Shown piece after piece: positions 2,413 through 62,378 of a stretch of DNA of 64,000 nucleotides (the stretch's first letter is position 1; each line of letters starts with the position of its first letter). This stretch comes from an uncultured Acidobacteriota bacterium (lineage in GTDB: Bacteria > Acidobacteriota > Vicinamibacteria > Vicinamibacterales > 2-12-FULL-66-21): NCBI GenBank assembly GCA_963725325.1, contig CAVRYF010000006.1, positions 95,993 to 159,992 on the forward strand, in the 5' to 3' direction. The translations under genes were made by a program, and so were the position numbers. The notes beneath the pieces were generated by a model that made no database searches, was not told where the DNA came from, and worked only from the letters and a program-made list of their open reading frames with translations.

Positions 2413-2604
2413 GTCAGTCGTCAGTCTTCAGTCGGCGGTCGTCAGGCTCAGTCCTCAGTCCGAGTCGCTAGTCCCAATCGTCAGTCGGAGTCTTCAGTCG
2501 GAGTCTTCAGTCGGTGATGGCAATCCCGTCGCGACTGCCGACTGGAACAGACGACTCGGACTGACGACTGTGACTGGCGACCGTCGACTCACGACTGTCG
2601 ACTG
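2413..2604. repeat. 192-nt word-repeat hairpin filling the whole spacer between the two tRNA-Arg genes
   Basis: The left half is built of CAGTC-type heptamers (gtcagtc gtcagtc ttcagtc ...). The right half is built of the complementary GACTG words (gactgacgactgtgactgg...). For example, cagtccgagtcg occurs in the left arm and in the reverse complement of the right arm. Confidence 0.8.
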
Positions 2605-2681
2605 TGGTGCGCCCGGAGGGATTCGAACCCCCGACCTACGGCTTCGAAGGCCGGCGCTCTATCCAACTGAGCTACGGGCGC
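2605..2681 (-). tRNA. tRNA-Arg (anticodon TCG), CCA encoded
   Basis: Reverse complement is GCGCCCG TA GCTC AGTTGGATA GAGC .. anticodon loop CTTCGAA .. GGGGG TTCGAAT CCCTC CGGGCGC A CCA. Confidence 0.88.
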
Positions 2682-2755
2682 ATGTCCGCGTCAACGCGAA
2701 CCCCCATCATACCGGGCCCGCGGAAGCGGGCGCAAGCCGCAACGGTTTCGAGGGA

Positions 2756-3139
2756 TCACCGCCTCGCGGGCGGGCCGAGCGGATTCTTCGCGAAGCACAG
2801 GTCCTCGACGATCCGCCCGCCGATCAGGTGCTGCTGGATGATCCGCTCGGCGTTGTCAGGCGTGACGTCGCGATACCACGCGCCTTCGGGATAGACGAGC
2901 GCGATCGGACCGTCGCCGCAGATCCGCAGGCAGCCCACCTTCGTCCGGTAGCATGGCCCGCTCGAGCCCGCGATGTTCAGCTCCTTCATCCGCTTCTTCA
3001 CGTAGTCCCACGTCTTCTCGCCATCGTCTTTGTCGACGCAGTCGGGGCCGAGGCAGACGAAGAGGTGACGGGTGAGCTGGCCGACGCCGAATGACTCAGC
3101 GGTTTCCGCCGGCGACGACTTGCGGTCTTTCTTGCCCAT
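2756..3139 (-). CDS. thioredoxin-like [2Fe-2S] ferredoxin domain protein
   Basis: 127-aa ORF with four spaced Cys ([10 protein letters not shown]...[25 protein letters not shown]), typical of this ferredoxin family. Confidence 0.7.
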
Positions 3140-3163
3140 CTGTGGCGATCATACCCGAGAGCC

Positions 3164-3240
3164 GCGAACGGCGAACGCCGAACGCCGAACTCCGAACGCC
3201 CAACGCCGAACGCCGAATCGCGAGTCGCGAGCAGCGAGCC
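3164..3240. repeat. tandem heptamer array (CGAACGC-like, about 10-11 units)
   Basis: cgaacgg cgaacgc cgaacgc cgaactc cgaacgc ccaacgc cgaacgc cgaatcg cgagtcg cgagcag. It lies between the ligD stop and the ferredoxin start. Confidence 0.85.
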
Positions 3241-3244
3241 CCGA

Positions 3245-60250: not shown

Positions 60251-60274
60251 CTATATATAGTAATATCTATATAT
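60251..60274. promoter_or_regulatory. AT-rich palindrome abutting the arsR-like start (candidate operator/-10 region)
   Basis: CTATATATAG-TAATAT-CTATATATAT, with TATATAG/CTATATA as inverted repeats. It is the only strongly AT-rich patch in this region and ends at the ATG at 60275. Confidence 0.45.
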
Positions 60275-60514
60275 ATGCCGACGCCCCTGCAGGTGCTCAA
60301 GAGCGATTTCTTCCGCGCGCTCGCCCATCCCACGCGCATCAGCATCCTCGAGCGGCTCTCGCAGGGCGAGCAGTCCGTCCAGGATCTCCAGGGCGCCCTC
60401 ACCCTCGAGCAACCGGTCGTGTCCCAGCATCTGGCCGCACTTCGGGCGAGGAACGTCGTGACCGTGCGGCGGGAGGGCACGCAGGCACAACGGGGTCGGA
60501 TCTCGATTGTCTGA
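60275..60514 (+). CDS. ArsR/SmtB-family HTH regulator, apparently C-terminally truncated (79 aa)
   Basis: FFRALAHPTRISILERLSQGEQSVQDLQGALTLEQPVVSQHLAALRARNVVTVRREGTQ. The ORF then ends in QRGRISIV*, encoded by a palindromic element. The wing and C-terminal helix are missing. Confidence 0.68.
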   Translation: MPTPLQVLKSDFFRALAHPTRISILERLSQGEQSVQDLQGALTLEQPVVSQHLAALRARNVVTVRREGTQAQRGRISIV

Positions 60515-60555
60515 TTCCAGGGCCAGCGATCAGAGAATCGAGATCTGACCCCGTT
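60489..60555. repeat. 67-nt palindromic element covering the arsR-like stop codon
   Basis: aacggggtcggatctcgatt (60489-60508) is complementary to aatcgagatctgaccccgtt (60536-60555), matching 19 of 20 with the mismatch G:U on the + strand. There is an inner pair tctgat/atcaga. Confidence 0.85.
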
Positions 60556-60581
60556 ACCAATAGGCGCTATGATCTGGCGCC

Positions 60582-62075
60582 ATGAACAGGTCTGCGAGTT
60601 CGCTGGGGGTGCCAGGTCTTCCGGATTCGTCACTGCCCGCCAGCCACGGCGAGCTCCCGCGCTGGGATGTCGCCGACCTGCCGGCGCCGCCGCCGTTCAA
60701 CGCGGGGAACCTCTTCAAGATCATCGGGCCAGGCGCGATCATGGCGGCGACGTCGATCGGCGGCGGGGAGTGGCTCGTCGGCCCTGCCGCGGCGGTCAAG
60801 TACTCCTCGGCGATCTTCCTGATTGCGACGGTCGCGATTCTGCTCCAGATCATTTTCAATCTCGAAGCCATTCGCTACACCCTCTACACGGGGGAGCCGA
60901 TTTACGGCGGCATCATGCGCCTCAAACCCGGGGCGAAGTTCTGGGCCGCTTTCTACACCGTGATTGGGTTCTTCCAGCTTGGCTGGCCCGCGCTGGCCGG
61001 CAGCGCCGCGGCGACGCTGATGGGAGCGTGGATGGGCCGGATGCCGGGTGCGCCCGATCAGGCCGCGCAGGCCTGGGTCGCCACGGGCCTCATGCTGTTT
61101 GTCGTCTTGATCCTCTCATTCGGCGGGACGATCGAGCGGATGCTCGAGTACTTCGCGTGGACGATGCTGGGCGTGGTGTTCCTGTTTCTCATCACCATCA
61201 ACGTTGCCTTCGTGCCGATGTCGCACTGGTGGGAAACCTTCCTGGGCTTCTTCAGCTTCACCGGCCTGCCGCATCCGATTGACTGGGGCCTCATCGGCGC
61301 GCTGGCAGCCACGGCCGGTTCGGGCGGCATCGGCAACCTCACGGTGACCAACTGGATTCGGGACAAGGGCTTCGGAATGGGCGCCAAGGTTGGCGCCATT
61401 CCGAGTGCGGTCGGGGGTCACGCGATTCAGCTCACGCACGTGGGCACCGTGTTTCCGGCGACCGCGGAGAACCTTGTGCGCTGGCGCGAGTGGATGAAGT
61501 ACGTCCACGCGGATCAGTTGTGGGTATGGGGCCTGTTTTGTTTTCTCGGAATGTTTCTCAACGTGAATCTGGCCACGGCCATCATTCCCCACGGCACCGA
61601 CCTCCAGGGGCTCGCGGCCGGCGCCTATCAGGCGGAATATCTCAGCAAGATCTGGCCCGGCTTCTGGTTCCTCACGCTCTTCAACGGCTTCTGGATTCTG
61701 TTCAAGACCCAGCTCGGTAACACCGACATCCTGGTGCGCACGATTACGGACGCGGTCTGGATGTCGAGCAAGCGAGCGCGGGACTGGCAGATGGGCATCC
61801 GTGCGATCTATTACGGGATCCTGCTGGCGTTCTCGCTGTGGGGCCTGTTCGTGATCCGCTCGGCGTCGCCATTCCAGATGTTCAAGATCCTGGCGAACAT
61901 GGCGGGCATCGTGCTGCTCATCGCCGGCATCCAGATATTTCTCGTGAACCGCCGCTTCCTGCCCAAAGCCGTGCGCGCGCCTCTCTGGCGGGAGATCGGC
62001 CTGCTCGCGTGCTCGGCGTTCTACGCGTTCTTCGCCTATTTCGTCGTGAGGGATCTGTTGAGGTCGATGTTTTAG
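60582..62075 (+). CDS. Nramp-family divalent metal transporter
   Basis: 497 aa, about 11-12 TM segments. The N-terminal signature is IIGPGAIMAATSIGGGEWLVGPAAAVKY. Confidence 0.8.
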   Translation: MNRSASSLGVPGLPDSSLPASHGELPRWDVADLPAPPPFNAGNLFKIIGPGAIMAATSIGGGEWLVGPAAAVKYSSAIFLIATVAILLQIIFNLEAIRYTLYTGEPIYGGIMRLKPGAKFWAAFYTVIGFFQLGWPALAGSAAATLMGAWMGRMPGAPDQAAQAWVATGLMLFVVLILSFGGTIERMLEYFAWTMLGVVFLFLITINVAFVPMSHWWETFLGFFSFTGLPHPIDWGLIGALAATAGSGGIGNLTVTNWIRDKGFGMGAKVGAIPSAVGGHAIQLTHVGTVFPATAENLVRWREWMKYVHADQLWVWGLFCFLGMFLNVNLATAIIPHGTDLQGLAAGAYQAEYLSKIWPGFWFLTLFNGFWILFKTQLGNTDILVRTITDAVWMSSKRARDWQMGIRAIYYGILLAFSLWGLFVIRSASPFQMFKILANMAGIVLLIAGIQIFLVNRRFLPKAVRAPLWREIGLLACSAFYAFFAYFVVRDLLRSMF

Positions 62076-62093
62076 CGCGAGGGACCATTCGAG

Positions 62094-62378
62094 GTGGACG
62101 GAGGCAACGGGTTCACCTCGGAGACACGGAGCTGAATTCAGTGGGAGACGCACGGAGGCTGTCGAGGTGCGTCGACCAGCAGACCGGTCGCGTCGCCGGC
62201 CGAACGGCCGGCGAGTGGCATCGGGAGAGCGGCGCAACTCAAAGCACCCTGTGTGTTCCTCGGTGCTCTGAGTTGTGCCGCTCTCTCGATGCCGCCCGCG
62301 CTTCGCGCGGCGCGACCGGTCCTCCGTGCGTCTCCGTGGTCTCCGTGTCTCCGTGGTGAACCCGTTGTCTCCGTCTAC
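62094..62378. repeat. 285-bp nested palindrome (rod-like hairpin; MITE-like or structured RNA candidate)
   Basis: Outer arms are gtggacggaggcaacgggttcacctcggagacacggag...gggagacgcacggagg and cctccgtgcgtctccgtggtctccgtgtctccgtggtgaacccgttgtctccgtctac. The middle pair is gaccggtcgcg/cgcgaccggtc. Inner 32-nt arms lie at 62217-62248 and 62262-62293, with the apex near 62250-62260. Confidence 0.85.

Follow-up and report, generated by a model that had tools for sequence, protein, structure and literature searches.

The stretch of DNA analysed here (the window; 64,000 nucleotides (nt), 65% GC) lies on contig CAVRYF010000006.1 of an uncultured Acidobacteriota bacterium. Its gene content is typical of Acidobacteriota, with duplicated MacB/FtsX permeases, CarboxypepD_reg TonB-type outer-membrane proteins, Ser/Thr kinases with TPR domains, and a LigD protein. 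In a species-representative genome collection, the nearest LigD relatives were found in metagenome-assembled genomes of uncultured Acidobacteriota (81% amino-acid identity at locus L001), followed by Vicinamibacterales and then by Gemmatimonadaceae. The subject of this study is a set of arrays of short tandem words, most of them heptamers, many of which face an array of the complementary word and can form a long hairpin with it. An initial annotation, made from the sequence alone, had reported at least 14 such loci with one architecture. Genes in the window were mapped with a codon-bias caller, and several starts were corrected from translations and from the gene calls of L081, a near-identical contig described below.

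Tandem-word arrays are abundant and often occur as inverted pairs

Tandem arrays were called with Tandem Repeats Finder (TRF, score >=50) and merged, and 30 dinucleotide shuffles of the window served as controls. The window contained 19 merged arrays, against a mean of 0.7 (maximum 4) in the shuffles, an excess of about 25-fold; arrays of period 7 with at least 3 copies numbered 13, against 0.4. The comparison with shuffled sequence, which the initial annotation had proposed as a check, thus bore out the abundance of tandem words. A pooled set consisting of the window and 80 related loci (1.58 Mb; 84% coding and 16% intergenic by a codon log-odds caller) yielded 259 arrays, 132 of them intergenic, with a density about 5-fold higher in intergenic than in coding sequence. 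The minimum period was 7 in 77 of the 132 intergenic arrays. Coding arrays favoured multiples of 3 (periods 6, 9, 12, 15, and 18).

An array was scored as paired when its reverse-complement array lay within 300 nt, and the array reversed, or merely complemented, served as control. In the pooled set, 51 of the 132 intergenic arrays (39%) had a reverse-complement partner, compared with 0 for the reversed and 3 for the complement-only control. In an independent replicate set of 433 kb of metagenome contigs, 71 arrays were found, 31 with period 7 and 30 with a reverse-complement partner, and the two controls again gave 0 and 3. These results demonstrate that the construction rule, one arm of tandem words and another of the complementary tandem words, is real and lies far above chance. 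The share of paired arrays across all related sequence was 39-42%, and the arrays at 3164-3240, 28436-28550, 50416-50475, and 56105-56176 are direct only, so that the description of an arm as "usually followed" by its complement was too strong.

Fold z-scores against shuffles were computed on both strands for the 35 intergenic regions of the window that are at least 30 nt long. Those holding hairpins reached -5 to -21 on one or both strands. The score was below -4.5 on at least one strand in 7 of the 35, to which 58211-58326 is added on the minus strand only, and about 25 regions were unremarkable. An inverted-repeat scan located the long inverted repeats where they had been annotated, with arms of 24-73 nt that are 81-100% complementary. 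About 14 of the 35 intergenic regions (approximately 40%) hold an array or a hairpin, and arrays are present in about 10% of those in relatives; the assertion that nearly every intergenic region has one is wrong for this reason. The proposal of one architecture at 14 or more loci held for about 8 of the 15 listed loci, which are word-armed hairpins, but 4 others are one-sided arrays and a GCGAG-rich region at 60100-60220 found no support. That region contains no TRF array, folds weakly (z -1.7/-2.5), and is hypervariable between strains. Likewise, words do differ between loci, as had been claimed, in that many words are in use, but CAGTC-, GCTGCTG-, and GCGAG-type words each recur at two or more loci. 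The trait is patchy among relatives. Several complete Vicinamibacterales chromosomes had no period-7 array in a 22-kb slice, arrays were few in the slices from the complete chromosomes that contain L040, L041, L045, L051, L055, and L056, and some Gemmatimonadaceae loci had several; GGGAATC-type words are present in the Gemmatimonadaceae locus L080.

The two arms of a hairpin mirror each other and change words together

To measure arm mirroring, whole units were shuffled after cutting at the word core, which keeps the register of mixed 6/7-nt arrays; shuffling of units of fixed length was unsuitable, since it loses this register and inflates significance. In long degenerate arrays, one arm mirrors the other unit by unit and does more than repeat its word. 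The arms of the hairpin at 2413-2604 mirrored each other in unit order, with an alignment score of 77 against 37+-6 for unit-shuffled arms (0 of 500 shuffles as high). Mirroring was also seen in the related loci L032 (88 against 46+-8) and L019 (58 against 40+-6).

Among related loci, a hairpin tends to keep its orthologous position although its word drifts. For the convergent gap that follows gene 56201-57130, there were seven hairpin-bearing orthologues with four different words, and each time the complementary word was found in the other arm. The word is GTTCA(A/G)G in the window and L081, GGCTCTA in L083 and L087, GGCTCAA in L085, and GGGACTC in L082 and L086. The inner hairpin CTTCGAG...CTCGAAG was kept in the window, L083, L085, and L087 while the arms changed. 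When the seven sequences were aligned, compensatory change on both sides was seen in 13 of the 34 pairs, and 88.7% of the cells were paired, compared with 78.0% after shuffling (0 of 500) and at most 53% when the partner column was slid. From these two-sided changes and the level of pairing, it follows that a new word reaches every unit in the two arms. Concerted evolution, within each arm as well as between the two, is therefore well supported as an interpretation of these alignments.

The loops of the hairpins often had structure of their own (z<-2 in 14 of 35). In L080, heptamer arms bracket GC hairpins, one of which is followed by a T-run like that of an ordinary terminator. Both features fit the idea that arrays extend outward from the base of a palindrome that was already there.

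Arrays also lie upstream of the AP_endonuc_2 orthologue in two loci. In L086 (1-100) the array uses the word of that locus's own downstream hairpin (CCCGAGC), and in L085 (280-400) it uses CTTGAAC, the word of the window hairpin 57137-57243. Words are thus common to intergenic regions about 1 kb apart, and to different genomes.

Arrays differ between near-identical strains

L081 (ERZ25039502:contig_80299) was traced by an exact-protein look-up with the ATG start at 56201 of gene 56201-57130. It is 99.08% identical to window positions 46220-64000 (17.8 kb) and is, on account of this value, a different strain or assembly. All six arrays of that part of the window are present in L081. Those at 50416-50476, 58212-58310, and 62094-62378 are identical. 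At 56148, L081 has a 25-nt insertion corresponding to about two CAGTC double units, so that the unit-number variation between strains looked for by the initial annotation was observed, in a single strain pair. The hairpin at 57137-57243 differs by five transitions, a rate about 8-fold the average over the 17.8 kb; by eye, these map to the position at which units vary, which is A/G in the left arm and C/T in the right one. Because unit number and unit variants change between 99%-identical strains, growth and turnover of the arrays by slippage appears well supported.

Three further differences from L081 were noted. Positions 60099-60246 differ from it at about 40 positions, including many indels of 1-2 nt, between flanking kilobases that are near-identical. 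Within 46385-47646, 1.3 kb of coding sequence, 45 substitutions and a single 1-nt indel are clustered, compared with about 0.2% divergence elsewhere, which suggests a recombination tract. Finally, 7 nt at 51764-51770 (CATTCCC) are missing from L081, where a 199-aa Gluconate_2-dh3 gene spans the site; in the window this gene is seemingly shortened, the caller giving 90 aa followed by a 326-nt gap, and the break reflects either a pseudogene or an assembly error.

Individual loci in the window

The arrays and hairpins of the window are listed in Table 1.

Table 1. Tandem-word arrays and hairpins of the window. Arms are given as left/right positions, length, and complementarity; x, copy number of the unit.
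Position	Feature	Units and words	Arms	Fold z (two strands)	Context
2413-2604	tRNA-Arg spacer hairpin, 192 nt	left arm degenerate CAGTC-type 6/7-nt array, right arm GACTG-type; TRF period 7/13	2415-2487/2532-2604, 73 nt, 81%	-10.7/-9.9	between two tRNA-Arg genes
3165-3240	direct arrays (TRF score 85)	CGAACGC x7.6 then TCGCGAG x3	no complementary arm	-0.6/-1.2	between LigD stop (3245) and start of next gene (3139), both genes minus strand
26968-27079	inverted repeat	right arm a perfect 33-nt x2 tandem	26968-26999/27047-27078, 32 nt, 94%; range 29-32 nt, 94-97%	-5.6/-7.6	divergent region
28437-28551	direct array, + strand (TRF, translation, Pfam)	CAGTC-type			inside Ser/Thr kinase gene
29000-29182	hairpin	left arm 26-nt units x3.3 with GCGGATTAC words; right arm GCGATCCGCGTAATCCGCGTCCCGT	29028-29052/29156-29180, 25 nt, 100%	-5.0/-6.6	3' of kinase stop codon
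32423-32465	abutting arrays (TRF)	TCAGGGC x3.6 then GAGCCTT x2.7	complementary once G-T pairs are counted		divergent region
33152-33255	small-hairpin array	26-nt unit x3.9, each unit a small hairpin GGGGACAC...GTGTCCCC			end of DedA/VTT gene and convergent gap to MacB-like permease gene
44744-44824	hairpin	CACGATGAC-type 8-9-nt words	44744-44776/44792-44824, 33 nt, 88%		PadR / MFS-transporter divergent region
46101-46190	array	GGCTGCT x3.7, partial complement, GCGAG words; words common to 58181-58356 and 3110-3274		-4.6/-5.5	begins at MFS gene stop codon
50416-50476	direct array	15-nt (7+8) unit x3.9, CTTCAGA-type			fills gap between two minus-strand genes, extends into first codons of downstream gene
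56101-56174	direct array	CAGTC-type, 13-nt double unit			overlaps peptidase S9 stop codon, ends about 25 nt ahead of next start codon
57135-57250	clearest hairpin	GTTCA(A/G)G x6, inner hairpin CTTCGAG-TGTG-TACTTGAAG, (C/T)TGAACC x5	57135-57178/57207-57250, 44 nt, 89%	-11.1/-16.7	between convergent AP_endonuc_2 genes
58212-58310	hairpin	GCTGCTG-type	58212-58235/58281-58304, 24 nt, 88%	-3.4/-5.4	divergent region
62094-62378	composite hairpin, 285 nt	clear tandem only in right outer arm (GTCTCCGTG x4); inner part unique sequence	outer 62094-62131/62341-62378, 38 nt, 92%; inner 38 nt, 87%	-14.9/-21.5	between co-directional genes

Several loci depart from the word-armed pattern under which they had been annotated. 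At 26968-27078 the inverted repeat was confirmed, but the heptamer GTGAATC occurs only twice per arm, and the real repeat is one arm duplicated perfectly as a 33-mer. The locus at 33152-33260 is indeed tandem, but its unit is 26 nt long in 3.9 copies and itself a hairpin, not heptameric. At 62094-62378, the inner part consists of unique sequence.

The array at 28437-28551 truly lies inside the Ser/Thr kinase gene, as had been reported for some arrays. It encodes an insert of about 40 residues, rich in S, Q, and V, in the activation loop of the kinase between the DWG and APE motifs, and the Pfam Pkinase match extends across this insert. It is a non-triplet repeat that gives rise to a disordered protein segment.

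With words that differ from locus to locus, arrays of protein-binding sites were rejected as an explanation for the whole set. At 44744-44824, between the gene of a PadR-family regulator and the divergent MFS gene, the CACGATG/CATCGTG half-sites could nonetheless be operator repeats, instead of or besides products of slippage.

Arrays accumulate at the 3' ends of genes

The 951 intergenic regions of the pooled loci were scored by the orientation of the flanking genes (190 convergent, 536 tandem, and 225 divergent). Any array was found in 31 of the 190 convergent, 47 of the 536 co-directional (tandem), and 22 of the 225 divergent regions, and a paired array in 12, 14, and 5 of them, respectively. 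Convergent regions were enriched over the rest both for any array (Fisher p=0.005) and for paired arrays (p=0.019). In tandem regions, the median distance of an array was 43 nt to the upstream stop codon, compared with 134 nt to the downstream start codon (p=0.001), and in convergent regions many arrays start within about 15 nt of a stop codon. The accumulation of arrays at gene 3' ends is well supported. Such a distribution is expected either for 3'-end signals or for insertions that are best tolerated away from promoters.

Arrays were nevertheless found in all intergenic contexts and in coding sequence, in agreement with the initial annotation. Three word-armed hairpins of the window (26968, 44744, and 58212) lie in divergent regions. 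In L018, L032, and L024, CAGTC arms bracket a conserved promoter-like core (GTGCTACGAT...GTTCGCGTC) upstream of tRNA-Arg(ccg). L001 and L043 carry this core with no arrays.

No T-run follows the hairpins, which had been described as devoid of a U-tract. Among 12 of them, none had a U-tract, with no more than 5 T, scattered, among the first 10 nt of either strand; they are not canonical terminators for this reason. Consensus terminators themselves occurred at chance level (11 found against 10.6 expected in 20 kb). Canonical intrinsic terminators, neither enriched nor matched by T-runs after the hairpins, were accordingly discarded as an explanation. With Rfam 15 at gathering score, only four tRNAs matched in the window.

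The tRNA-Arg spacer

In the window, tRNA-Arg(tcg) and tRNA-Arg(ccg) (2336-2681) are joined solely by the 192-nt CAGTC/GACTG hairpin, whereas in relatives they lie 3-7 kb apart. There, CAGTC arrays stand downstream of tRNA-Arg(tcg) in two loci (L002 and L043) and flank tRNA-Arg(ccg) in three (L018, L032, and L024). Judged from this arrangement, the two genes were likely brought together by a deletion between arrays of the same word. If they are co-transcribed, the long stem is a plausible candidate for an RNase III-type processing site.

A small hairpin (CTTCGCTCACGC...GCGTGAGCTACGGYTGGCAAGCC) is conserved 3' of tRNA-Arg(ccg) in the window (2267-2335), L001, L043, L018, and L032. Two of these loci, L043 and L018, have another copy of the tRNA 3' end (GGGCCGGGCGCACCA) after it, a pattern that looks like the integration scar of a mobile element.

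Words are shared within genomes

Array pairs more than 400 nt apart within a genome shared a word (at most 1 mismatch) in 23.6% of cases, compared with 3.6% between genomes. In L093, three hairpins (1951-2070, 4774-4913, and 11556-11726) share an inner core of about 55 nt (CAGAGGCAACC...GGTTGCCTCTGA), and their arm words differ (GGGGTCC, GGGATCC, and GGGCTCGC); therefore some copies have probably spread as small dispersed elements. All-against-all blastn of the intergenic regions of the 64-kb window returned only matches between word arrays, with no shared core or palindrome. A MITE/REP family with a shared core was thus not found in the window, such a core being seen solely in L093. The absence from the window of a single-consensus REP/MITE family (REP, repetitive extragenic palindromic; MITE, miniature inverted-repeat transposable element) had been anticipated by the initial annotation. 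Pfam scans of 20 window proteins detected no transposase.

Relation to known repeats

REPs have a genome-wide consensus, are mobilised by RAYT transposases, and have been proposed to act in mRNA stabilisation, termination, and gyrase binding. The arrays described here resemble REP/BIME/REPIN elements (BIME, bacterial interspersed mosaic element) as extragenic palindromes that are concentrated beyond the 3' ends of genes and in convergent gaps, and that often alternate in orientation. They differ in having no shared consensus in 64 kb, arms that are internally periodic, and words that are replaced at orthologous sites.

Heptanucleotide repeats of Calothrix PCC7601 go by the name of STRR. The view that the arrays form an undescribed repeat class is not supported, since heptanucleotide arrays are known (PMC4679880, PMC4692102) and inverted pairing has been reported in Xanthomonas (PMC4692102). 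According to the accounts in these two papers, the 2007 survey of long simple sequence repeats (LSSRs) by Mrazek and colleagues found heptanucleotides over-represented among long bacterial simple sequence repeats, and an explanation by slippage was proposed that invokes how much DNA the polymerase holds (PMC4679880, PMC4692102). Three different tandem heptanucleotides were reported in Calothrix PCC7601, as related in PMC4692102. To the extent that LSSRs and STRRs are described there, our arrays agree with them in their head-to-tail units of 5-11 nt, with 7 nt the commonest, in their mainly intergenic location, in the use of several words per genome, in the attribution to slippage, and in the predominance of units in multiples of 3 inside genes. 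They depart from LSSRs as described in these two papers by forming inverted pairs with co-evolving arms. The LSSR-richest genomes named in these accounts are those of Burkholderia, cyanobacteria, actinobacteria, and Xanthomonas, and Vicinamibacteria and Gemmatimonadota are not mentioned in them (PMC4679880, PMC4692102).

The closest parallel in pairing is the GGGAATC repeat of Xanthomonas, for which Rehm et al. 2015 listed 186 patterns of this repeat for Xcc and 183 for Xac (PMC4692102). Two close convergent sites on opposite strands were counted in 70 cases in Xcc and 75 in Xac, and such pairs can form stem-loops because they are close together and in opposite orientation (PMC4692102). Related species differed in repeat length but usually kept the position of a repeat and its type (single or inverted pair); the same paper also covers GGGGA(C/T)T repeats of Nostoc (PMC4692102). 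Both systems consist of intergenic heptamer arrays in genomes of about 65% GC and include inverted pairs. The Xanthomonas work, however, concerns one G-rich word, read as G-quadruplex-forming, whereas here a dozen unrelated words occur in 64 kb, most of them not capable of forming a G-quadruplex. The window words are, among others, of CAGTC-, GTTCAAG-, GCTGCTG-, CACGATG-, and CGAACGC-type, not GGGAATC/GGGNATC. Arm mirroring and compensatory word replacement, demonstrated here, were not analysed in the Xanthomonas work (PMC4692102). The word GGGATTC forms just one weak array of 3 copies in the window, at 21479-21502.

TAACTGA direct repeats were described by MacGregor 2015 in Beggiatoaceae and cyanobacteria, where they are abundant in intergenic regions and patchy in phylogenetic distribution (PMC4679880). 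They consist of a single word, are oriented toward start codons and end just upstream of them, and are inverted in only 1 of 170 sets (PMC4679880), in contrast to the many words, 3'-end bias, and frequent inversion found here. In open-access papers and preprints, we found no description of such repeats in Acidobacteriota or Gemmatimonadota, nor of a multi-word repertoire or of arm mirroring and co-variation at orthologous sites. What is apparently new is therefore the multi-word repertoire, the unit-by-unit mirroring and co-variation of arms at orthologous sites, and the hosts, Vicinamibacteria-like Acidobacteriota and Gemmatimonadota.

Discussion

We consider it probable that the arrays are slippage-generated microsatellites with unusually long units, mostly of 7 nt, of the LSSR/STRR kind, which often occur as inverted pairs and grow on palindromes. 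A short word beside or within a palindrome at a gene boundary is amplified head-to-tail by replication slippage, a turnover shown by the changes in unit number and unit variants between 99%-identical strains. The arms stay complementary and switch word together, an outcome shown by the orthologous series. Probably one arm serves as template for the other, by fold-back or template switch, or the inverted arms undergo gene conversion, and selection for pairing may contribute. In quasi-palindrome template-switch mutagenesis (the Ripley model), which is RecA-independent, one imperfect arm templates the other. This process would explain concerted arm change, although it is known for point corrections in short quasi-palindromes and is not known to maintain tandem-repeat arms of 40-70 nt. 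Arrays accumulate, as the statistics show, where they are least harmful, just after stop codons and between convergent genes. Once transcribed, paired arrays may lengthen a small 3'-end hairpin to a stem of 25-70 bp, which could be a terminator or 3'-end protector free of a U-tract, or an RNase III substrate, for example at 2413-2604. Many copies, such as one-sided arrays, promoter arrays, and the kinase-loop array, are probably function-free by-products.

Several points weigh against this account. A partner is lacking for 61% of the arrays in the pooled set. The equally related L084 and L088 lack the hairpin at the convergent gap, their genes almost abutting. Co-variation of the arms could arise by compensatory selection alone, and arms that bracket a promoter, as in L018, L032, and L024, would not normally share one transcript. 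The context statistics are only approximate, because genes in the related loci were mapped with a simple in-house codon-bias caller. A function of the arrays at the RNA or DNA level is uncertain. The fold energies of the sense and antisense strands showed no bias among 14 hairpins in co-directional regions (p=0.5), and G-U and A-C mismatches were about equal in the orthologue alignment; equal folds and balanced mismatches gave no sign of the strand asymmetry that would mark RNA-level selection. On the sense strand of one-sided arrays in co-directional regions, C exceeded G in 16 and G exceeded C in 16, a split on which the idea of rut sites, whose sense RNA is C-rich and G-poor, was rejected.

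It is rather unlikely that the hairpins are instead selected RNA structures, that is, terminators (factor-independent or bidirectional) or stabilisers of 3' ends, in an organism of high GC content that makes no use of U-tracts and for which tandem words are the easiest route to a long stem. Such structures would be expected where the arrays are enriched, beside stop codons and in convergent regions; their position is conserved with compensatory word changes among orthologues of 81-91% protein identity, canonical terminators are not in excess, and the arms in L080 flank one of canonical type. The missing strand asymmetry, the unpaired majority, and the loss of the hairpin in L084 and L088 are difficult to reconcile with this explanation. 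So are the paired arrays in 5 of 225 divergent regions, the three divergent hairpins of the window, the hairpins of related loci that bracket a promoter, and the stems of 40-70 bp, which far exceed what termination needs. Strand symmetry would be natural for elements acting at the DNA level, as cruciform-capable palindromes that absorb supercoiling or bind a structure-specific protein. Such roles in supercoiling and protein binding have been proposed for BIMEs that carry gyrase or IHF sites. The location at boundaries of transcription units, above all convergent ones, the presence around a promoter core, and an architecture independent of sequence would also suit this idea. However, with arms this imperfect (81-92%) a cruciform is costly to extrude, and unpaired arrays are left unexplained; we judge it very improbable.

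Somewhat better, although still improbable, is the proposal that the arrays are copies of small non-autonomous mobile elements (MITE- or REP-like) whose arms are fast-diverging tandem repeats. Sharing of words is 6.5 times commoner within than between genomes, one core is common to three L093 hairpins with different arm words, and CAGTC arrays recur within the window (3-4 loci) and, in relatives, near tRNA-Arg genes. Against mobility stand the lack of common cores in the window, the lack of a transposase among the 20 scanned proteins, and the stability of orthologous positions across species, where words change in place. An origin in assembly or sequencing errors, or in chance, is effectively refuted. 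The window is probably a long-read metagenome assembly and contains at least one suspicious, gene-breaking 7-nt indel. Yet the excess over shuffles is about 25-fold, the arrays are kept in the independently assembled L081 and at orthologous positions, and the same architecture appears in contigs with MEGAHIT- or SPAdes-type names, which denote short-read assembly, and in JGI metagenome contigs. The concern of the initial annotation that the arrays might be assembly or consensus artefacts is thereby answered.

Slippage on palindromes, the origin we prefer, may be combined with function in a bolder scheme that we regard as doubtful. The arrays would then be sequence-independent, self-renewing palindromes, with arms of tandem 7-nt units kept complementary by hairpin-templated slippage. 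They would be the chief bidirectional signal for transcript ends or insulation that needs no U-tract, or a signal for RNase III processing, in Vicinamibacteria-like Acidobacteriota and Gemmatimonadota. The accompanying supposition that each new word sweeps both arms while structure and position persist in the long term is held just as tentatively.

Acidobacteriota and Gemmatimonadota rank with the most abundant bacteria of soil, and their transcript ends and non-coding evolution are hardly known. If paired arrays mark transcript ends or processing sites, operons could be delimited from sequence in uncultured genomes without canonical terminators, of which there are thousands. The series of orthologues, with one site, four words, and complementary arms, is a natural example of concerted evolution of palindrome arms that could be used to study slippage and template switching. 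The arrays also provide hypervariable strain markers and possible deletion sites, as at the tRNA-Arg pair, and can add disordered loops to proteins, as in the kinase activation loop.

Other repeats in the window

Hairpins at 5670-5769 and 60489-60555 have 27-nt arms (89% and 93% complementary, respectively) that are not built from tandem words; therefore the word rule is not universal for the long palindromes of this genome. In a divergent region, 23977-24044 holds a perfect 24-nt x2 tandem (CATGTGGACGGCATTACACGTGCA) with a 10-nt x1.9 repeat directly after it. The LigD gene (3245-5644, minus strand) encodes 799 aa, and most relatives gave shorter matches. It contains a repeat of about 150 nt at 4321-4472 and 4743-4893 (91% identity over a 113-nt core), each copy with a palindrome of 36-nt arms. 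One copy falls between sub-domains of the ligase, the other within the linker that precedes the primase-polymerase domain. Their spacing of 421 nt puts them in different reading frames. The arrangement looks like two insertions of a small palindromic element that left the gene unbroken.

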